This document shows, in pieces, positions 1,531-10,358 of a stretch of 10,736 nt of DNA. Positions within the stretch are counted from its first letter, which is position 1; each line of letters opens with the position of its first letter. Below the pieces are notes generated by a model. It searched no databases. It was given only the letters and a program-made list of their open reading frames with translations, and was not told the DNA's origin. This stretch comes from Chthoniobacteraceae bacterium (GTDB lineage: Bacteria > Verrucomicrobiota > Verrucomicrobiia > Chthoniobacterales > Chthoniobacteraceae): the NCBI GenBank assembly GCA_031409655.1, contig JANNXQ010000040.1, positions 1 to 10,736 on the forward strand, given 5' to 3'. Position numbers and translations under genes: made by a program.

Positions 1531-1650
1531 GATTCACCACAGAGACACCGAGAGCACCGAGGGGCGGAAGGGTGGATGGGGCGGTTGATAAAGCGGGCGC
1601 CTTCGGCTCTGGCTTCTTCTCCGTGTCCTCGGTGTCTCTGTGGTTAAATC
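1531..1650. repeat. Long inverted-repeat element between convergent genes
   Basis: Perfect 17-bp arms ACCACAGAGACACCGAG (1536-1552) / CTCGGTGTCTCTGTGGT (1628-1644), extending imperfectly to ~30 bp. The arms contain CACnGAG sub-repeats at 8-9 nt spacing. The right arm abuts the vsr stop codon. Confidence 0.85.
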
Positions 1651-2072
1651 CCAATCCACCCCAGAGCCCGCGCCACCCTCGCCGCCACCCGCGGCCAGTG
1701 CTTCGCCGCGAGATCGCACTCCCACACCCGCAGCACCGTCCAACCCTGCTGGCGCAAGGTGCGCGTCACCAGCCGGTCGCGAGCTTGGTTGCGGAAAAGT
1801 TTCGCCGCCCACCACTCCGCACGGTTCTTGGGCAGCGGCGCGTGCTTCGGCTTTGGGCAGCCGTGCCAGAAACACCCATCCACGAACACCGCCACCCGCC
1901 CACGGCGAAAGACAAAATCCGGCTTCCCGAAAAGCGCCACGTTGCGCCGCCATCCCGTAAAGCCATGCGCGCGAAAGAGCGTCATCATCCTCAGCTCCGT
2001 ATCCTTGTTCCCCTTCCCGCGGATCGCCGACATCACCGCGCTGCGTTTGGCCGGGGTGAAAACGTCGGGCAT
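1644..2072 (-). CDS. vsr: Very short patch repair (T:G mismatch) endonuclease
   Basis: MPDVFTPAKRSAVMSAIRGKGNKDTE N-terminus, GKPDFVF, VFVDGCFWHGCP, WWAAKLFRNQARD and GWTVLRVWEC are all Vsr hallmarks. ATG at 2072 is preferred over TTG at 2087. Confidence 0.96.
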   Translation of the reverse strand: MPDVFTPAKRSAVMSAIRGKGNKDTELRMMTLFRAHGFTGWRRNVALFGKPDFVFRRGRVAVFVDGCFWHGCPKPKHAPLPKNRAEWWAAKLFRNQARDRLVTRTLRQQGWTVLRVWECDLAAKHWPRVAARVARALGWIGI

Positions 2073-2083
2073 CGCCAGTTCGC

Positions 2084-2572
2084 TCAAGCTTCGCCGGCGA
2101 GTCGGAGGACTTCGACCTCGAAATCCGGATGCAACCAGAATCCCGCCTCCGCCCGCAGTCGCACAAACACCGGGCGCACCGCCGGAATCAGCCCGCTTTG
2201 GCGAGCACGAAGGAGGATGCCGGCGACCCCGACGAATGGAACCTTGAGAAGGCCCGCTGCCCGCCGTCCGGCGGCCTCGTCAATGAGCACGGCATCGGCG
2301 TGCCACTCCAGCGCGAGCGCCAGGGCTTCGGATTCGCCGGCGTCCAGATCGGGACAGGCACGGACCTCCGATGGCACCTGCACGGGAGGCGAAATCTGCA
2401 CCCAGCCTGGGAGCATGAGGCCTTGAAAGCGCGGGCGGCTTTTCGTCAGGCGGGAAAATTCCGCAGCCACGGCGGGCGGAATCCACACCTCCTGAAAAAG
2501 CTCCGGAAGCAGCCCCTCGGCAGACACCCGGCAAAGATTCAGCAATACGGAAGTGTCCGAGACGACGAGCAC
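2084..2572 (-). CDS. DUF3368-family PIN-domain protein (putative toxin)
   Basis: GTG start at 2572, 1 nt after the upstream TGA. Motifs: (M)LVVSDTSVLLNL, VWIPPAVAAE, LDAGESEALALA, VLIDEAAGRRAA, GVAGILLRA and a C-terminal LRLAGE. Confidence 0.88.
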   Translation of the reverse strand: MLVVSDTSVLLNLCRVSAEGLLPELFQEVWIPPAVAAEFSRLTKSRPRFQGLMLPGWVQISPPVQVPSEVRACPDLDAGESEALALALEWHADAVLIDEAAGRRAAGLLKVPFVGVAGILLRARQSGLIPAVRPVFVRLRAEAGFWLHPDFEVEVLRLAGEA

Positions 2573-2573
2573 G

Positions 2574-2837
2574 TCAGTCTTCGCGCGGGGCGGTTCCACT
2601 CTTCCCGAAAAGCCGGTCCATCGCCTCCAACTCTCCGTGGAGATCCTCCACCGTGTAGGTGCTGATGCCGCGCTCACCCAGCGCCTTCTGGAAGCTGAAA
2701 AAATCCACGCCAGCCAATTCCGCCCCGCTCACCTTCGTCACCTTGCTCTGCGCATACAGCGCGCACGCCAGTTCCAGCCGCAGTTCGGCCTCCGTCATCC
2801 GCGCGGTGGCGGGAACGTCTGGCAGGGTGAGATTCAT
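2574..2837 (-). CDS. UPF0175-family protein (putative antitoxin)
   Basis: 87 aa with ELRLELACALYAQSKVTKVSGAELAGVDFFSFQKALGERGI and YTVEDLHGEL. It lies directly upstream of the DUF3368 PIN gene, the usual pairing. Confidence 0.88.
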   Translation of the reverse strand: MNLTLPDVPATARMTEAELRLELACALYAQSKVTKVSGAELAGVDFFSFQKALGERGISTYTVEDLHGELEAMDRLFGKSGTAPRED

Positions 2838-3089: not shown

Positions 3090-3602
3090 TCAAGACAGCG
3101 TCTGGATGCGGGGCAGCGTCTGGGTGATCAGCCAGGCGAGGTCCTCGCCCGCTCGCAGGGCGGGAAACGCGGTGAACTCCTTCACCGCAAAGCCGCGCTC
3201 GAAGATGATGAAGGCGCCCTGTCCGCCTCCCGCAGGATCCAGGCGGAACTCCGGCCTCTTCGCTTCCGCCGTGCGAAGAATCTCAATCGTAGGTCGATAG
3301 TATCGAACGCTGCCGCACACTTTTTTGTTCGGATACTGAAAAAACGCGACGGTTCCCTGGACCAAGCCGGTCGTGGATCGGATGCCGACGGTGATCTCGA
3401 AAAAGCACGATGTGCTGCTCCAAAAAGTCGGCGGCGATTTACGGCGCGGCAGAAGGCGAAGGCGGGCGACATTCTTGATCGTCGGATGCGGCTGGGGATC
3501 GCCTTTGGCGGGTGAAAGCGCATCGCGCAACTCTGGCGGGAGCTTTTCCAAACACGTTTGCCACGCGGCCTGCGCCAATTCGTTTCGTGCTTCGTTAGTC
3601 AT
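3090..3602 (-). CDS. Hypothetical protein (170 aa)
   Basis: ATG at 3602 overlaps the upstream stop (ATGA) and has AAGGAG 7 nt upstream. No family recognised. Confidence 0.7.
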   Translation of the reverse strand: MTNEARNELAQAAWQTCLEKLPPELRDALSPAKGDPQPHPTIKNVARLRLLPRRKSPPTFWSSTSCFFEITVGIRSTTGLVQGTVAFFQYPNKKVCGSVRYYRPTIEILRTAEAKRPEFRLDPAGGGQGAFIIFERGFAVKEFTAFPALRAGEDLAWLITQTLPRIQTLS

Positions 3603-4336
3603 GGGGAAACTCCTTTCATCGTCAGGGGCTGAAACCGCTGAAACTCCTTCGGCAGCTTGGCCAGCAGTTCGCCCGGTTCCAGCGCGTAGAGATCCCACGT
3701 CACGTCGATCTGGTTGCAGAAATCCGCGAGTCGCCTTGCAGTGCCTCGGGATTTTCCGCCGCCACCGCGTTTCGGCTGCTGCGTTTGCGGATCAACGTAG
3801 AGCGAGGTCGCGGCGGCGAGGAAGGCGCGGTTCGTGACCAGTTCTTGCCGCGAGGCGAGTTGTTCGACGAGATCGCCTGGCGTGTGCAGGGGCTGGCAGA
3901 GCACGACCATTGCGCGGGCGGGCTCGTCGCGATGGGTGCGATAGATGCGCCAAGGGCCGGCGAGCAGGTGGCGGTAGTAGCGCTGGAAGTTGCCCACGTC
4001 CGGGATGTGCCGTGCGCGTTCACCAGGCTTGCGGTGGCCGCGGCCGTCGGGCGGGCACACTTCGTCAAAGTGCAGCAGCGAAAGCCAGGCCCACAGGCCA
4101 GCGTCGCGGGCCACATCGGCGAGGCGCGCGGCTTCCAGCGTGTCGTAGAGCCATTGCCCGGCGGCGAAGCGGCTGCCGAAGGTCTGCCGCGCGATCTCTA
4201 CGGGCGCGGCCTGCTCGGAAGTCGCGTCTGCCGTGAGCAGTGTCACGGGTGGCGGGAGCGCAGGCTCGTCCTTTAGCGCTTCGAGATATTCGGTGAAGAG
4301 GCGCAGACCCTCCGCGTTCAGGCGGCGCAGATTCAT
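3599..4336 (-). CDS. Hypothetical protein (245 aa), candidate defence-system component
   Basis: ATG at 4336 with a strong SD (GAGGAGGTG) and an ATGA overlap with the upstream gene. Motif-like segments: DAGLWAWLSL, RYYRHLLAGPWRIY, EQLASRQE, PKRGGGGKSRGTARRL, QIDVTWDLY and LPKEFQRF. Confidence 0.85.
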   Translation of the reverse strand: MNLRRLNAEGLRLFTEYLEALKDEPALPPPVTLLTADATSEQAAPVEIARQTFGSRFAAGQWLYDTLEAARLADVARDAGLWAWLSLLHFDEVCPPDGRGHRKPGERARHIPDVGNFQRYYRHLLAGPWRIYRTHRDEPARAMVVLCQPLHTPGDLVEQLASRQELVTNRAFLAAATSLYVDPQTQQPKRGGGGKSRGTARRLADFCNQIDVTWDLYALEPGELLAKLPKEFQRFQPLTMKGVSP

Positions 4337-5109
4337 CGGCTCACCTCCTCGCTCCAGAAGCTCCGAAACTTCTCCAGCAGCCCATGCTTGCGGGCAAAGG
4401 CCGCGACGGCGCCCGCGATCCATTCGTCGTCCGCGTCCTCGCCTTCGGTTTCGAGCGGCGGTTCGCCCACGCCGAGCACCTCCACGGCGAAGCGCAGCCA
4501 GCGCGAAAGCGGGTGCTCGGCATCGTCGAAATCGCGATGCTTCTCGCGATGCAAAATCCGCTCCAGCACCTCGCGCAACGCCGCCGGATAGACCACCGCC
4601 ACAAAGCCCGGCTCCAGGCCGATCTGCTTGTAGTCGCCCGCGTTGGCATTGATCAGCAACCGCGGATGATCCTCGAAGTCGATCCTCCAAAGCAGGTCGC
4701 CAAGATCGTGTGAAGGCACCACCGGCAGCAGCGGCGTGCGCGGATCGTTGAGATCCTCCGGCGCGCGCAGCCGCACGCGATCGGCCTCGGCGAGGAGCAG
4801 CCCGTGCGGCTCCTCCGGCGTGCCGGGCGAAGTCACCCGCACGCGGAAGAGCACATCGTCCGGCGAATCAAACTCGGCCAGCGCGCGGTTGACCGGCGGT
4901 TGCAGCGCGCTCACCGTGCCCCACGGCCAGCGCATCCACGTCGTCTGCCGATAGGCTTCCACGAAGACGAGCGACTCGCCGGGCAGTTCGTAGCCATCGA
5001 ACTCGAAGACCGCGTCGAAGCTCCAGCCGCGGCCTTCGGGCTTGAGGGAAAAGCGCACGTCCTGCTGCCGGAGCCGGACGCGATCCGTGTAGTTAAAGGT
5101 CCGCTGCAT
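4333..5109 (-). CDS. Hypothetical protein (258 aa), candidate defence-system component
   Basis: ATG at 5109 preceded by GGAGGA. It has a beta-rich-looking N-terminal half (RTFNYTDR, VFVEAY, VLFRVRV, LLPV, LWRIDF, PRLLIN) and a helical, acidic C-terminal half. Confidence 0.85.
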   Translation of the reverse strand: MQRTFNYTDRVRLRQQDVRFSLKPEGRGWSFDAVFEFDGYELPGESLVFVEAYRQTTWMRWPWGTVSALQPPVNRALAEFDSPDDVLFRVRVTSPGTPEEPHGLLLAEADRVRLRAPEDLNDPRTPLLPVVPSHDLGDLLWRIDFEDHPRLLINANAGDYKQIGLEPGFVAVVYPAALREVLERILHREKHRDFDDAEHPLSRWLRFAVEVLGVGEPPLETEGEDADDEWIAGAVAAFARKHGLLEKFRSFWSEEVSR

Positions 5110-5398
5110 CTTCCTCCTCCTTGTCTTTGACCTGAATCTCCACGCGTAGATCGCGCTGCACGTCGAAGCCGATTACCGTCAGGAGGAAATCGCGTTCCAA
5201 TACTTTTGCGAACAGTCGGTTCTTGCCGCCTTCCGTCACTTCGACGCAACGCCCCATAATTGTGAACCGGTCGTCTGCCAGGTCGAAGTCAGCAGGGTGA
5301 TACTTCTTGAACGCGTTGCCTCGGCGCACTTCGTAAGCGGCGCGGATGTCGAGCAACTGCGGCAAATCGGCGTCGGGATCGCCGGCATAGACGCGCAA
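5093..5398 (-). CDS. Hypothetical protein, possibly the C-terminal remnant of a larger gene
   Basis: Protein-like sequence (AYEVRRGNAFKKYHPADFDL...GFDVQRDLRV). Its 3' end overlaps the next gene by 17 nt and carries that gene's SD. Only a TTG start without SD is available at the 5' end, and the frame stays open up to 5482. Confidence 0.6.
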   Translation of the reverse strand: MRVYAGDPDADLPQLLDIRAAYEVRRGNAFKKYHPADFDLADDRFTIMGRCVEVTEGGKNRLFAKVLERDFLLTVIGFDVQRDLRVEIQVKDKEEEDAADL

Positions 5399-5440
5399 GC
5401 CGGCCTTGTCATGCTGGAGTCGCCAGGGCTCAATGTCGCC

Positions 5441-5668
5441 ATGTCGAATGTCGAAGACTCTCTCGGTGCGCTTGGAACTGCGTTACGCAACGCGCGTGAA
5501 GAACAGGGATGGACGGTCGAACAGCTCGCGGAGAAGTGTGGGTTGTCGGCGCTGGCGATTGCGGGATTTGAGAGCGGTCGCGCGGAAGCAACGTTGCTCG
5601 ATGTGCTCGCCCTGGCGAAGGCACTCGGCACCACGCCACAGCAGCTATTCGCAGACGCTCGTCTTTAA
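5441..5668 (+). CDS. XRE-family helix-turn-helix regulator (75 aa)
   Basis: LGTALRNAREEQGWTVEQLAEKCGLSALAIAGFESGRAEATLLDVLALAKALGTTPQQLF fits the HTH_3 pattern. ATG at 5441. Confidence 0.85.
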   Translation: MSNVEDSLGALGTALRNAREEQGWTVEQLAEKCGLSALAIAGFESGRAEATLLDVLALAKALGTTPQQLFADARL

Positions 5669-5693
5669 CCCGCGCCGCGGGCATCAAGGAATT

Positions 5694-5873
5694 CCGGAGG
5701 GATTTTGGAAATTAGCCGGGCGTAACACCCTCGGACCCGCATCGACAAAAGCGCCGCACCCCGGCAGTGGTGCCGGAATTGTCGCTGACGTTTCCCGCGC
5801 CCCTCTGGGGCGCATTCAATTTTGGCGTAGGACCGGGGGTGTTACCCCCGGCAAATTTTCGTCAGCCCTCCGG
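5694..5873. repeat. 180-bp REP/REPIN- or MITE-like element with 44-bp imperfect terminal inverted repeats
   Basis: 5694-5737 matches the reverse complement of 5830-5873 at 35/44 positions by manual alignment. Internal hairpins: CCGGCA-GTGG-TGCCGG (5761-5776), GCGCCCC-TCT-GGGGCGC (5797-5813) and CCGGGGGT-GTT-ACCCCCGG (5833-5851). Confidence 0.8.
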
Positions 5874-5892
5874 GCTGGGTCTCAGCTCCGAG

Positions 5893-6669
5893 CTATGCGG
5901 CGGCTTGAAAACGATGCCGCCGATGCCAAGCGAGGAACTCCAACTCGGGAAGGAACCGCTCAGGCGGTCGCACGGATATGCCGTCGAAATCGAGGAGCCA
6001 TGTTTTGATTTCAGGCGACTCGGCTTGGCAGCGAAGCCTTGGCGATACCATGACGCTGAGCTTGTCGCTGAGAGTGATCAGGCCGCGATCAAAGGCCCGA
6101 TCGTGAAGCGCGTTCAGGCAAAGCCCGTTGGCCGGGTTGACGCGCGTTGCCTTGTTCTCGGCCCAAGGGATGACGTGACTGGCGACCAACAATTCCGGGA
6201 CTGCCAGACCAGTGATGCAACAGCGATAGGTGTAGGCGGCAAGCACCGCGGATCGGAAGAAGTGTTGATTCACGCGCTGCCGAACCATGCGCTCTCGCTC
6301 CAAGCCTTCTTTGGGAAGCTCACGCAACGGAATCTCAGCTTCCACTTCGACCGGCTTGCCGCGAAGCGCGGCCAACATCTCTTCGCTCTCAAACGCTTCA
6401 CCTTCCCAGTCGGAATGAAACTCCTCCCAAATCCGACGGTCTGCCTGGCTTGCTCCCGAAAGTCCCTTCACCCCGCGAGCCTGATGGATCGGATCAAGCG
6501 AAGCGAAGTTGCACAGCTTCATCGCGAGACTCGACGGCGAACGACCCATCCGCCCGGCGATCTCGATCAGCAGAGGGTTCCGAGCGTGAAACTGTCCGAA
6601 CGGCACCTTGCAATAGATGTTCATCGCCACCATCAGATCCTCCTGAGACCAGGGTTTGCCGTGTGCCAT
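5893..6669 (-). CDS. HNH endonuclease (HNH_2 / COG3440-like putative restriction endonuclease)
   Basis: RVNQHFFRSAVLAAY, CCITG, LVASHVIPW and NPANGLCLNALHDRAFDRG. The N-terminal helical domain reads KPWSQEDL...YCKVPFG...GRSPSSLAMKLCNFASLDP. Confidence 0.93.
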   Translation of the reverse strand: MAHGKPWSQEDLMVAMNIYCKVPFGQFHARNPLLIEIAGRMGRSPSSLAMKLCNFASLDPIHQARGVKGLSGASQADRRIWEEFHSDWEGEAFESEEMLAALRGKPVEVEAEIPLRELPKEGLERERMVRQRVNQHFFRSAVLAAYTYRCCITGLAVPELLVASHVIPWAENKATRVNPANGLCLNALHDRAFDRGLITLSDKLSVMVSPRLRCQAESPEIKTWLLDFDGISVRPPERFLPELEFLAWHRRHRFQAAA

Positions 6670-6672
6670 AAG

Positions 6673-7068
6673 TTAATCGGTTAGCTCGAAAACCGCTTTG
6701 CTGGGCACGGTGGTCTGGTGCTCGAATTTCACGACGCGAACGATACCCAAGTAAGTGAATAGGTCGCGATGTCGGTGGCGATGAAAGACGTAAATCCCGT
6801 CGCCTGATTTCGCGGCATTTGCGATGCGGGCGTCGCTCCCGTGTCCTTTTTCACCTTCCCAGATGAGTGTCTTCCCATGCAGACCATTTTCATACTGCGT
6901 GAAGTCTTCGGGTTTCTCCTCGGAGACGAACAAGATGATCTTGTTGTCTCCTGCGGGCGTCACAACCCCACGGGCGATGGCTTGATAGGCCGCATAGTTC
7001 CACAAGTCCGCCAGCTTTTGGCGCGTCCACTTTGAACCAACAGAAATCTCGGAGAACGATACTTTCAT
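6673..7068 (-). CDS. Stand-alone SRA/PUA-like putative DNA-binding domain protein (131 aa)
   Basis: AIARGVVTP, IILFVSEEK, QYENGL, LIWEGEKGHGSDARI, IYVFHR and FTYLG resemble N-terminal SRA-like domains of modification-dependent HNH nucleases. The start is uncertain because GGGAGG is only 2 nt before ATG 7068. Confidence 0.65.
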   Translation of the reverse strand: MKVSFSEISVGSKWTRQKLADLWNYAAYQAIARGVVTPAGDNKIILFVSEEKPEDFTQYENGLHGKTLIWEGEKGHGSDARIANAAKSGDGIYVFHRHRHRDLFTYLGIVRVVKFEHQTTVPSKAVFELTD

Positions 7069-7117
7069 TGCCTCCCTGGAAGACCAGGCTACGTCACTGA
7101 CCGCAAGACCAATCGAG

Positions 7118-8716
7118 TTAGGACGCCCCGGACAACCCGGCCAACTGCGCTTCCGAGCAGTAGAACTCTTCCTCCGCAATCAAACCGCCTTCGTAGCGCT
7201 GCCACGCTTCGTGGCCCAGCAGTTCGAGGGAGACGGGCCAGCCGCTGCGGGCAAACCGATTCGCCGCAAAATCTTCGAGACCGGGGAGCGGGAGTTGATC
7301 TTCTGACCAAAGAGCGATCGGGTCGCCGTGATCGAGCGCGTTGTCAGGATGCAGGCCGGGGAAGAGATAAAACAGCGCGAACCAACCGCGGAGAAAGACA
7401 TCCTTTTCACACCCGCGAAGCTGCCGCCGGTCGAGACCGGCGATCTCTTGGAGACGGACGGCGGCTTCAGCTTGCGACGCGGGGATCAAGCGGCGCAGCG
7501 GAGGCTCGGTCCGTGGCGCCGGCTTTTGCGAGCGGGGCTTCTTCTTCGGCTTCGCACGGAGAAAAGCGCGCACTTCGAGTCCGACGGCTTCACCAACGAG
7601 CGGTGGCACGGCGTTGCCGATGATTCGATACTGGTGGGTGCGGGCGACGGGGAAGACGAACCAATCCGGGAAACTCTGGATGCGGGCGGCTTCGCGCGGG
7701 GTGAGCGAGCGGTTCTGCGTCGGGTGGATGAACATGAGGCCGTCCTTGCTCAGATGCGCGACGATGGTGCTGCACGCCTTGCGGCGGCTCTGGCGGGTGT
7801 AGCGGTCCTTGAAGGTGGTCTTGTCGTAGGGGAAGGCGAACTCGACGCCGCGACGCATCGCTTTGGCGGAGCTTTCTCCCTCGCGCAGGAGGAGGAAGTC
7901 GCCCAAATCGCGGGCGCTGTGAGGGCGGGCGCGGTGTTCGGTGAGGTGAGGCGCGAGTTTCACCTCGAGCACCTGATACAAAAAGCGGCGGGCAACCCTG
8001 CCCCAGCGGTGGAGATGTTCGCGTCGGCGGGAGAGGTCGTAGGCGCAGCATTCCTCACCGGCGCCGGCCGCGAGGACGGGCAGGTCGCCAATGGCTGGGC
8101 CGAGCGTGGTGCCGGGGAAAGCACGCGGCGCGGGCTTGAGCATCGAAGGAAAAAAGCCGGGTAGATCGCCACGCACGCCGACGATGAGCTGGCGGCGGCG
8201 CTTCTGGGGGACGCCCAGGGCGAAGGCGTCGGCGATCTGCGCCATCACGCGGTAGCCGAGCAGCCGGGCCTCGTGCTGGACGCGGGTGAAGTATTCGCCG
8301 CCCGCGGCGGTCTGCAGACCGAGCACGTTTTCCATGACGAAGACGCGCGGCTGGAAGTGCTCCACGTAGCGGAGGTATTCGAGGAAGAGCAACCGTCGGG
8401 GGTCGTCCTTGAGCCGTTGACCGCTGTTTGCGCCATCGCGCTGGCGGGCGGTGGAGAAGCCCTGACACGGCGGACCACCGGCGATGACATCCACGCGATC
8501 CGTGCCGATCAGCTCCGCGAGCTGCGCGGGCGGAAACTTCGTGAGATCGCGTTCGAGGACCTGGGGGACGTCGGGGAAGTTTGCGCGGAAGGTGGCGACG
8601 GCTTCTGGGTTGAAATCAATGGCCGCAAGGCAGTCGAAACCGGCGCGCTCCATCCCGAGCGAGAAACCGCCGCAGCCGCAGAAGAGGTCGAGGAACGTGG
8701 GTTCTTCCGACTTCAC
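7118..8716 (-). CDS. dcm: DNA (cytosine-5)-methyltransferase with C-terminal extension
   Basis: Motifs occur in canonical order: I DLFCGCGG, IV GGPPCQGFS, VI ENVLG, VIII VPQKRRR, IX RSLTPREAARIQSFPD and X IGNAVPP. The GTG start overlaps the upstream TGA (GTGA). The symbol is family-level only and the target site is unknown. Confidence 0.97.
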   Translation of the reverse strand: MKSEEPTFLDLFCGCGGFSLGMERAGFDCLAAIDFNPEAVATFRANFPDVPQVLERDLTKFPPAQLAELIGTDRVDVIAGGPPCQGFSTARQRDGANSGQRLKDDPRRLLFLEYLRYVEHFQPRVFVMENVLGLQTAAGGEYFTRVQHEARLLGYRVMAQIADAFALGVPQKRRRQLIVGVRGDLPGFFPSMLKPAPRAFPGTTLGPAIGDLPVLAAGAGEECCAYDLSRRREHLHRWGRVARRFLYQVLEVKLAPHLTEHRARPHSARDLGDFLLLREGESSAKAMRRGVEFAFPYDKTTFKDRYTRQSRRKACSTIVAHLSKDGLMFIHPTQNRSLTPREAARIQSFPDWFVFPVARTHQYRIIGNAVPPLVGEAVGLEVRAFLRAKPKKKPRSQKPAPRTEPPLRRLIPASQAEAAVRLQEIAGLDRRQLRGCEKDVFLRGWFALFYLFPGLHPDNALDHGDPIALWSEDQLPLPGLEDFAANRFARSGWPVSLELLGHEAWQRYEGGLIAEEEFYCSEAQLAGLSGAS

Positions 8717-8946
8717 GCGCGCACCCCTTCACAAAGCTCCGCCAATGTAAGGCCGAGCGCCTTGGCCACCCGGACCATGCTGAGCAGGCTCGGATTGCGC
8801 ACGCCACGTTCGATGCCGCTGATGTAAGTCGGGTCGAGATCGGCTTTCTCAGCAGCCTTGAGCTGGGAAAGACCGAGCGCTTCACGACGCTGCCGAACAT
8901 TGAGACCAAACGCCGCCAACGGACGGGCACGGGGAGACTTCGCCAT
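8713..8946 (-). CDS. XRE-family HTH, restriction-modification controller (C) protein-like
   Basis: FGLNVRQRREALGLSQ...LDPTYISGIERGVRNPSL...VAKALG matches the C-protein pattern (TYISGIERGxRN). It is coupled to the methyltransferase and has C-box-like repeats upstream. Confidence 0.9.
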   Translation of the reverse strand: MAKSPRARPLAAFGLNVRQRREALGLSQLKAAEKADLDPTYISGIERGVRNPSLLSMVRVAKALGLTLAELCEGVRA

Positions 8947-8969
8947 GCCCCAGACCCTGCCCAGTCATG

Positions 8970-8995
8970 GACGATCAGTCTTTGGACGATGAGTC
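8970..8995 (-). promoter_or_regulatory. Tandem C-box-like operator
   Basis: The minus strand reads GACTCATCGTC-CAAA-GACTGATCGTC. These are two 11-bp GACT-N3-(A/C)GTC boxes with 15-bp periodicity, ending 23 nt upstream of the C-gene ATG. Confidence 0.8.
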
Positions 8996-8996
8996 A

Positions 8997-9019
8997 GAAT
9001 GTTCTGGTTTAGAACATTC
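8997..9019. promoter_or_regulatory. Perfect palindrome, candidate second operator
   Basis: GAATGTTCT-GGTTT-AGAACATTC, with 9-bp arms and a 5-nt spacer, 1 nt from the distal C-box. Confidence 0.5.
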
Positions 9020-9068
9020 CTTCAAACCACCAGTGAACTGATCAACGTGCTCCGGAGGCGGGGCGGGG

Positions 9069-9101
9069 CGGTAGATGGCGCGCGCAATTCGCCATCTACC
9101 G
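9069..9101. repeat. GTAG-type REP-like hairpin
   Basis: Perfect 12-bp arms CGGTAGATGGCG / CGCCATCTACCG with a 9-nt loop. It contains GTAG...CTAC and lies between divergent genes. Confidence 0.6.
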
Positions 9102-9200
9102 GGCTCGGGCACCGCACTGCCGCGGCAGAAAGAGCTTGCCGGGGATTTTCGCGGGCGGCGATACCTTCGGACCCACCTCGATCACTCCCGCCTCACTCCT

Positions 9201-10358
9201 ATGAAACAAGTTCGTCTCGGCATCGTCGGTCTCGGCAATATCGGTAAATTTCACACGGGGTATCTGCTGGAGGGGAAGATCGCGCGGTGTGAGCTGGCGG
9301 CGGTGAGCGATGCGTATGCGCCGAGTATGGAGCCTTTCAAGGCAAAGGGGATTGCGACTTTCGACAAGGGCGAGGATCTGATCCGGTCGGGGAAGATCGA
9401 TGCGATCGTGGTGGCGACACCGCACTTTCTCCACACCACTCTGGGGATCGAGTCACTGAAGGCGGGGCTGCACACGATGATCGAGAAGCCGATCTCGGCG
9501 CACAAGGCGGACGCGGAGCGGCTCTGTGCGGTGGCGCGGGAGCATCCGCAGCAGATCTTTGCGGGGATGTTTCAAATGCGCGTGGAGCCGCGCTACCTGA
9601 AGATTCGCGAGCTCATCGACAAGGAGATCGGCCAGCTCGTGCGGGTGAACTGGATCATCACGGATTGGTTCCGCACGGAGGCCTACTATGCGAGCGGCGG
9701 CTGGCGCGCGACTTGGAAGGGCGAGGGTGGCGGGGTGTTGCTGAATCAATGTCTGCACCAGCTCGACATGCTGCAGTGGCTCTGCGGGATGCCGGCGAAG
9801 GTGCGCGGGTTCTGTCAGCTCGGGCAGTTTCATGACATCGAGGTGGAGGACACGGTGACGTGTTATCTGGAGTGGGGAAATGGGGCGACAGGAGTGTTTG
9901 TCTCCTCGACGGGTGAGGCGCCGGGGACAAACCGGCTGGAACTCATCGGCACGCGCGGCAAGGTGGTGCTGGAAAACAACAAGCTGATTTTCAACCGCAA
10001 CGACGCGGACATGATCGCCTTCAGTAAGTCGGCGAAGAGCGGCTTTGCGAAGCCAGAGGTCTGGAACGTGGAGGTTCCCTTCGACAATGCGCCGAATGCG
10101 CACGCGACGCTGATGCAGAATTTCGTGGATGCGATCCTGGACGGCACGCCGCTGATCGCGCCCGGCTATGAGGGCCTGGGCTCGGTGGAGCTGGCGAATG
10201 TGCTGCTCTATTCGTCGCTCCTCGGCCAGACGGTGGATCTGCCGATGGACGGGCTGGCTTGGGAGGCGAAGCTGAACGAGCTGATCGCCAACTCGAAGCA
10301 CGAGAAGAAGGTGGCGGCGGTGCAGACGGAGGATTTCACGAAGTCCTTCCGACGGTAG
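9201..10358 (+). CDS. Gfo/Idh/MocA-family oxidoreductase
   Basis: Rossmann start MKQVRLGIVGLGNIG, then DAIVVATPHFLH, MIEKP, WRATWKGEGGGVLLNQCLHQLD and IEVED. ATG 9201 is preferred over 9075. Confidence 0.95.
   Translation: MKQVRLGIVGLGNIGKFHTGYLLEGKIARCELAAVSDAYAPSMEPFKAKGIATFDKGEDLIRSGKIDAIVVATPHFLHTTLGIESLKAGLHTMIEKPISAHKADAERLCAVAREHPQQIFAGMFQMRVEPRYLKIRELIDKEIGQLVRVNWIITDWFRTEAYYASGGWRATWKGEGGGVLLNQCLHQLDMLQWLCGMPAKVRGFCQLGQFHDIEVEDTVTCYLEWGNGATGVFVSSTGEAPGTNRLELIGTRGKVVLENNKLIFNRNDADMIAFSKSAKSGFAKPEVWNVEVPFDNAPNAHATLMQNFVDAILDGTPLIAPGYEGLGSVELANVLLYSSLLGQTVDLPMDGLAWEAKLNELIANSKHEKKVAAVQTEDFTKSFRR

Follow-up and report, generated by a model that had tools for sequence, protein, structure and literature searches.

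The stretch of DNA analysed here (in the following, the window) is the entire 10,736-bp contig JANNXQ010000040.1 from the 6.85-Mb genome of a Chthoniobacteraceae bacterium (assembly GCA_031409655.1). Between housekeeping-type flanks, a DUF1501 gene and a Gfo/Idh/MocA gene, it carries a minus-strand island with the gene order control (C) protein, C5 cytosine methyltransferase (C5-MTase), DUF3427-like gene, HNH endonuclease gene, a helix-turn-helix (HTH) gene on the opposite strand, four chained open reading frames (ORFs), a UPF0175/PIN pair, and vsr. The four ORFs at 5093-5398 (101 aa, TTG start), 4333-5109 (258 aa), 3599-4336 (245 aa), and 3090-3602 (170 aa counted from the ATG), all on the minus strand, had been proposed in an original prediction to form an uncharacterised four-gene defence system linked to cytosine methylation. 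Re-reading of the sequence confirmed their overlaps of 17 nt, ATGA, and ATGA, the strong Shine-Dalgarno (SD) sites before the last three ORFs (AGGAGGAGG, GAGGAGGTG, and AAAGGAG), and the motifs quoted for the 245-aa protein, while matches to HTH_3, DNA_methylase, and Vsr bore out the genomic setting. As a system, the four genes do not hold together: the 101-aa ORF is the end of a much longer ATPase gene (gene A), the 258-aa and 245-aa ORFs are its partners (genes B and C), and the 170-aa gene lies outside the conserved unit. The window very probably contains a partly deleted copy of an A-B-C module that belongs to a divergent branch of the PDC-M33/paraMORC2-like family.

A scan of species genomes with an alignment of gene B, for which 541 homologues were found (gene C has at least 1131), yielded 75 loci, the nearest of which belong to Chthoniobacterales and Spartobacteria. 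Gene C follows gene B in 72 of the 75 loci; of the remaining three, two run into a contig edge, and C has been lost from L037. Upstream of B lies gene A with about 635 aa, which is at least 85% full length in one frame in 59 loci, split or cut in 6, cut by a contig edge in 4, and deleted in 6; a near full-length set of A, B, and C is present in 54/75. The conserved unit is a three-gene operon A-B-C, not a block of four genes, and the observation that two genes of about 250 aa might follow a larger one proved correct. The order A-B-C is kept down to 25% identity (L084). In that locus the trio (7878-11440) lies on the 1.3-Mb Rhizobium leguminosarum plasmid pRlX5 with a methyltransferase-like gene 2.6 kb downstream. 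The occurrence of the module is patchy, with 3/60 genomes of the same family and 10/300 genomes of the phylum. In a plasmid collection, A was matched once, and B, C, and the 170-aa protein were not matched; no relative of gene A was found in viral contigs. Among cultured strains, intact loci are present in Lysobacter defluvii (L063) and Planctopirus hydrillae (L026). In L023, an intact trio lies between two IS66-like transposase genes together with a vsr fragment (4557-13299), and a second copy of gene A is located 8 kb away (19076-20728). An unnamed gene of about 215 aa is found just upstream of A in 11 loci (L009, L010, L017, L021, L026, L032, L057, L059, L064, L067, and L074) and another of about 390 aa in 6 loci (L007, L011, L012, L024, L052, and L053). 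No Pfam family over the cut-off was found in the six that were scanned, and both genes probably encode regulators.

By its sequence, gene A encodes an ATPase of the GHKL (Hsp90/MutL) type. Its alignment contains the N-box, the Asp/Gly box, and the glycine-rich lid, and four motifs were each detected in 54-55 of the 55 full-length proteins. A broad gene A profile aligned with 23 MutL sequences over the ATP-binding part only (hhalign, probability 76%, E 2e-5), while ten column shuffles all gave E values of 0.4 or higher. Against the PDB, 34 of 37 weak matches were N-domains of Hsp90 (best E 0.055). Behind the ATP-binding part, an ExxxH motif (E436/H440) is invariant in 55/55 proteins, and R..ExxxH is invariant in 20/20 distant gene A proteins with 16-28% identity. 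The distance between the arginine and the histidine is 39 residues, compared to 46 between two motifs of MutL, the second of which carries the lysine that senses the gamma-phosphate. Because of this similar spacing and the role of the lysine, ExxxH may be part of the ATPase rather than of a nuclease site. The remnant in the window (5093-5431, minus strand) corresponds to the C-terminal beta-rich domain, matching positions 538-633 of the 635-position profile with an E value of 5e-31. The similarity extends about 11 codons upstream of the TTG start of the 101-aa ORF, and the remnant is the sole piece of gene A in the host genome. Both the ATPase and the ExxxH region are missing from it. An apparent in-frame extension beneath the HTH gene (5459-5578) reaches only about 1 bit, and the antisense control comprised just three HTH loci. 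The original prediction had recognised no nuclease, helicase, or ATPase motif in the four ORFs, and indeed none of them received a name from Pfam, PADLOC, or NCBIfam; the module as such does possess an ATPase, which is deleted here. An internal duplication linking the A tail to the Ig-like domain of B was rejected (hhalign E 0.34), and none was found between A and C.

Gene B (4333-5109, minus strand; model pLDDT 91) encodes a 258-aa protein with an N-terminal Ig/FnIII-like sandwich followed by a helical domain. The best fold match (Z 8.4, rmsd 3.1, 96 residues) lies within residues 11-116 and is a generic Ig/FnIII sandwich, leaving the helical C-terminal half uncovered. The product of gene C (3599-4336, minus strand; 245 aa; pLDDT 92, pTM 0.88) is helical and had a best PDB match of only Z 3.3 with VIA-align, none with Foldseek, and none among viral models. 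Gene C thus appears to be without a match among solved structures, by which a new fold is not proven. In the ESM Atlas, gene B led to hypothetical clusters only and gene C to no usable match. Co-folding of the A tail, B, and C resulted in a score of 0.76 compared to 0.00 for the best control, with runs agreeing in at least 65% of contacts and a partner pLDDT of at least 79. The score mark is reached by 116/157 solved and 2/215 mismatched pairs, counts that are only rough for a three-chain job. As the score drops to 0.00 once C is swapped out, the model supports binding between B and C, while docking of the A tail on B is a tentative contact. Gene B is accordingly a predicted adaptor between A and C. 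Conservation at the predicted interface is higher than elsewhere in B (0.67 vs 0.53) but not in C (0.62 vs 0.60). Outside the interface, C has conserved residues R56, R102, R109, Y121, R122, H123, R201, and R202, and this basic and aromatic surface would fit DNA binding, a plausible property of the 245-aa protein, for which the original prediction had suggested binding of nucleic acid.

Members of this family have been catalogued under other names. PADLOC lists three gene types, A-C, for the candidate system PDC-M33. While the four ORFs of the window remained unnamed in the PADLOC scan and the A remnant has no match to the PDC-M33A model, gene A of 9/9 intact relatives matches this model (PDLC04582) with E values of 2e-12 to 3e-26, best over the first ~300 positions. 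The model also matches 18/400 gammaproteobacterial genomes, a count that leaves out one further genome, and DUF6339 is found in 5/400, all among these 18. The best PDC-M33 loci (L115-L117) have A, a second gene, and PDC-M33C/DUF6339 in the order A-B-C followed by a C5-MTase, and a PDC-M33B match was found in the two of them that were scanned. A profile of gene C aligned with 14 third-position genes of PDC-M33 loci over 172 columns (hhalign, probability 94%, E 1e-7), with seven of them at 92% and E 7e-7, and with four core members at only E 0.017. The likeness to DUF6339 noted in the original prediction is thereby supported, and gene C may be regarded as a remote DUF6339/PDC-M33C homologue, although a direct HMM scan with the PADLOC model matched 0/55 proteins. 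For gene B the relation is weaker (hhalign E 0.0045-0.06), with the same position and a similar size, and the PDC-M33B model PDLC04583 matched 0/55 proteins and 0/5 genomes. PDC-M33 and the module share three genes of about 630, 280, and 245 aa, their order, and C5-MTase neighbours; they differ in that core PDC-M33A proteins do not align with the C-terminal domain of gene A in this clade and that the copy in the window has no ATPase. From these profile comparisons, the family appears to be the one catalogued as candidate PDC-M33, with the module as a divergent branch. The available text of Payne et al. (10.1101/2024.01.29.577857) describes 145 PDC systems as untested and PDCs as embedded in other systems, and its main text does not mention M33.

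A second relative is paraMORC2, for which the available sections of Iyer 2008 (PMC2292703) give ExxxH in an S5 domain as hallmark and report that genes of this class have DCM and Vsr as neighbours. The gene A family shares with it the N-terminal GHKL domain, a conserved ExxxH at the expected place behind it, and C5-methylase and Vsr neighbours, while it differs by having no recurrent helicase and by its fixed partners B and C, which the available sections do not describe. In the accessible part of a 2026 preprint, a restriction-like role of paraMORCs remains a proposal, and PMC8011034 concerns, as far as its accessible text indicates, a different paraMORC-related family. A literature search, in which supplements were outside the scope, found no paper naming PDC-M33 or DUF6339 and found paraMORC2 only in Iyer 2008. 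The description of the system as uncharacterised therefore stands in so far as no test of the family was found, while its novelty is reduced by the PDC-M33 entry and by the resemblance to paraMORC2. The suggested likeness to Azaca was rejected. According to the accessible text, ZacA of Azaca is a DUF6361 protein and the other components are a PLD nuclease and an SF2 helicase; A, B, and C match none of these, and their large gene is of the GHKL type, so that three genes and an anti-phage context are all that is shared.

In the window, about 530 N-terminal codons of gene A are missing, and the DUF3427-like, HNH, and HTH genes, on which the original prediction was silent, lie in their place between the C5-MTase and the four ORFs. 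Gene A is also deleted in six other loci, all of which have a C5-MTase of the same clade as the window (6/21 vs 0/23 and 0/10 for the two other main clades); no statistic is attached to these counts because the loci are kin. Breakpoints differ in all six loci and the window, and the C5-MTase is retained. B or C is also cut in four of the six (L006, L014, L039, and L065). The pattern suggests that the module has decayed repeatedly at a hot spot while the methyltransferase was kept. In L005, a Schlafen-group-3 helicase and an opposite-strand HTH gene (7214-9502) stand in place of most of A, with an AIPR-like gene and a further incomplete gene C downstream. As to a possible assembly artefact, a single contig of run X1, possibly the source sample itself, covers positions 4939-9200 of the window without any difference, and no other run bridges the deletion junction by 31 letters. 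Gene B of the window has dN/dS values of 0.30-0.41 against L003-L005, compared to about 0.08-0.12 between other pairs. Relaxed selection was nevertheless not concluded from this, as the values against L001 and L002 are 0.11-0.13 and the branch is not assignable. Since the motor is gone, B and C of the window are probably idle.

It is conceivable, although very improbable, that the window is instead a working new system in which the HNH nuclease or the 170-aa gene has replaced the ATPase, with B, C, and the A tail as its scaffold. Neither B nor C is damaged and both have strong SD sites, the A remnant comprises about one whole domain and touches B in the model, and relatives of the HNH gene are found at the corresponding position of three A-deleted loci (L006, L039, and L065). 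The damage to B or C and the differing breakpoints in the other A-deleted loci argue against such a cassette, as does the presence of the same HNH family beside an intact trio (L033 and L074). Furthermore, initiation at the TTG would remove residues 5-8 of the modelled interface, and an opposite-strand gene and a strong hairpin separate the HNH gene from the A remnant.

The 170-aa gene (3090-3602, minus strand) is a real coding sequence that is rare and lineage-specific: its homologues form four clusters including its own, dN/dS is 0.20 against the relative in L083, and none were found in 75 related loci or in 100 related genomes. The L083 relative follows an AIPR-like gene and only ~70 bp of a decayed gene C, which also speaks against a joint function with B and C. 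The gene is a passenger that arrived behind C in this lineage.

The other genes of the island frame the module. At its upstream end, an XRE-type control protein gene (8713-8946, minus strand; Pfam HTH_3 E 2.5e-16, PADLOC Control_protein E 1.7e-16) overlaps the start of the gene for the C5-MTase (7118-8716, minus strand), an open frame of 532 aa (PF00145, E 3.8e-66) that groups as 'clade I' with 21 related loci. The slot in which gene A should begin is occupied by the 133-aa DUF3427-like gene (6673-7074, minus strand; E 2e-4, below the cut-off), whose product has no PDB match and no homologue in the 75 related loci and which we take to be SRA-like. The HNH endonuclease gene (258 aa, 5893-6669, minus strand; HNH_2 E 5.5e-13, PADLOC PDLC04132 E 1.8e-97) follows directly, within 5893-7074, and the pair may, as we assume, represent a split modification-dependent nuclease. 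Between the HNH and HTH genes lies a long imperfect inverted repeat with 44-nt arms of 80% identity (5694-5873; RNA fold z -4.7), for which 0/200 shuffles were equally stable and Rfam contained no near-threshold match. A partial copy of this 180-nt hairpin is present elsewhere in the genome (contig C150), and similar ends were seen in other contigs of sediment runs; it is possibly a small mobile or repeat element. The XRE HTH gene (5441-5668, plus strand; HTH_3 E 6.5e-14) abuts the broken end of gene A. Downstream of the four ORFs, the toxin-antitoxin-like pair of UPF0175 and PIN (DUF3368) genes (2084-2837, minus strand; PADLOC PDC-S70 E 1.6e-39) is flanked by a 34-nt inverted repeat of 79% identity (2098-2131 and 2897-2930), suggesting a discrete cassette that is separate from the module. 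The island ends with the gene for the very-short-patch endonuclease Vsr (1644-2087, minus strand; PF03852 E 1.5e-20, TIGR00632 over the cut-off), and a REP-like inverted repeat with 29-nt arms of 86% identity (1533-1647) is located at its left edge. A promoter and terminator scan gave no excess over shuffles.

The association of the module with DNA methylation was assessed with a linkage cut-off of 5 kb, for which 11/75 loci are too short to judge the presence of a C5-MTase. A C5-MTase is present in 58/75 loci, which are 58 of the 64 judgeable ones, and often lies less than 100 bp away on the same strand, while the same profile finds only two in the 6.85-Mb host genome. On contig C178 of this genome, at ~9.3-12.3 kb, inspection by eye showed a second C5-MTase with more genes behind it, among them a vsr-like frame. 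Vsr is encoded within 5 kb of the module in 52/75 loci; in 17/75, at most 80 bp separate it from gene C. No other defence family comes close to the frequency of the C5-MTase. The co-occurrence among homologues of the 258-aa and 245-aa proteins thus agrees with the proposed link of a defence-type module to C5-MTase/Vsr loci. The intact module may be a methylation-linked restriction-like machine for defence against phage or plasmid DNA, a reading to which a probability of about 0.5 is given. By analogy to MutL, Hsp90, and MORC, gene A would close as an ATP-driven clamp on DNA. Its proline-rich linker would carry the last domain, which in the model docks on the N-terminal strand of B; the Ig-like domain of B is modelled to hold C, and C would present its conserved Arg/Tyr/His surface to the DNA. 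The neighbouring C5-MTase would mark and thereby protect host DNA, and Vsr would repair T:G mismatches arising from the methyl mark, as established for dcm/vsr pairs. Unmarked DNA would be trapped or looped and subsequently either blocked without being cut or cut by an unrecognised site or a neighbouring nuclease. In the window, the methyltransferase, Vsr, and the incoming HNH gene would be what persists after loss of the motor.

Several results weigh against this reading. No nuclease motif or fold was found by family scans of A, B, and C and fold searches of B and C, the neighbourhoods contain no recurrent SF2 helicase, unlike most MORC-type operons, and the literature search found no anti-phage test of any member. 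The collapse of the complex score without C, described above, belongs here as well. The C5-MTase partners fall into three unrelated clades with 21, 23, and 10 loci plus 4 others, and in a tree of B and C (69 loci; 7/76 omitted for too little B or C) these clades switch among close relatives. In clade III, an additional gene is common to 9/10 loci, and in the two that were scanned it encodes an EcoRII-type nuclease; where such a nuclease lies beside the methyltransferase, in nine loci, the trio is not the cognate endonuclease of that enzyme. Outside clade III, no recurrent nuclease was found except Vsr and an occasional HNH protein. Finally, in 6/75 loci, which branch off in three separate parts of the tree, the flanks are complete but contain no C5-MTase within 5 kb, and four of the tested ones are under purifying selection; in the Planctomycetaceae group, A, B, and C have dN/dS values of 0.02-0.14 where dS is unsaturated. 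Unlinked C5-MTases are encoded in 5/5 tested genomes of such loci but also in 9/14 control genomes. In the Planctomycetaceae clade (L050, L051, L054, L056, and L060), the intact trio is found in varied housekeeping contexts, and no linked methyltransferase or vsr was seen.

The loci without a linked methyltransferase lead to an unlikely alternative, in which the trio would be a stand-alone defence system that is blind to the mark, senses DNA ends or replication intermediates of phages or a phage protein, and recombines through hot spots of restriction-modification (RM) genes. The diversity of partners, which comprise three MTase clades, EcoRII-type RM, Z1/DUF4420, GmrSD_N, and PAPS-reductase-like genes, would agree with this, and so would the three gene types of PDC-M33 in PADLOC and the embedding of PDCs in other systems. 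In L128 (G299:C7), dcm, vsr, an MzaC-like Z1 gene, and a DUF4420 gene precede the trio, which lies inside an Mza/MORC-type operon, and in L119 and L120 the trios adjoin GmrSD_N (HEC-05-like) genes. The high proportion of judgeable loci with a C5-MTase, unmatched by any other defence family, argues against blindness to the mark. So do five distant loci without a methyltransferase, in which a PAPS-reductase-like gene, a candidate DNA modifier, lies within ~20 bp.

These five distant trios (L118 and L121-L124, in genomes G505, G336, G256, G109, and G406) have no C5-MTase within 15 kb, and the adjacent gene of ~420-460 aa is called PAPS-reductase-like from weak matches to SspD, DndC, and BrxP, all below the cut-off. 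It is possible that its product writes a non-methyl DNA mark. BREX systems consist of an ATPase, small partners, and a DNA-modifying enzyme without an obvious restriction nuclease, and one BREX type relies on a PAPS reductase instead of a methyltransferase. The weak BrxP matches of the PAPS-like neighbours noted above are to the PADLOC model. It might be imagined that, in the intact module, a GHKL clamp forms the core of a BREX-like defence machine that works without a nuclease and combines with different DNA marks. It would pair with three unrelated C5-MTase clades in the majority of hosts and, in five gammaproteobacterial loci, with a PAPS-reductase-like enzyme, and gene C would be the reader that distinguishes marked from unmarked DNA; taken together, this is rather doubtful. 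BREX would be a functional analogue only: A is a GHKL protein and not a P-loop protein, the mark here is C5-cytosine, and no Brx or Pgl protein was matched by A, B, or C in sequence or fold.

The frequency of Vsr near the module and next to gene C could also indicate a MutL-like helper that loads or activates Vsr at T:G mismatches or maintains methylation without any direct role in defence. Very-short-patch repair by MutL and Vsr likewise has a GHKL ATPase, which here is encoded beside Vsr and a C5-MTase. According to the available sections of Iyer 2008 (PMC2292703), MutL acts together with Vsr in repair in E. coli. No nuclease was recognised in the trio itself. However, the hosts have their own MutL, which was found in 31/31 sampled genomes of the phylum, and B and C have no counterpart in the repair pathway. 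The Planctomycetaceae loci without a C5-MTase are also without vsr, none was seen in 15-kb stretches around the loci with PAPS-reductase-like and GmrSD genes, and a lone fusion of C and Vsr (P0154) resembles a frameshift. A helper function of this kind is therefore quite improbable.

The copy in the window is broken, and the apparent exchange of marking enzymes within the family is worth a closer look. The comparison ties the three labels paraMORC2, PDC-M33, and DUF6339 to one predicted three-subunit machine and adds a branch whose B and C genes are missed by current PADLOC models. The modelled interface of B and C and the intact loci in named cultured strains make the question of its function directly testable. 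The existence of MORC/paraMORC systems in prokaryotes was predicted in 2008, and the intact relatives of the module would allow this long-open prediction to be tested.

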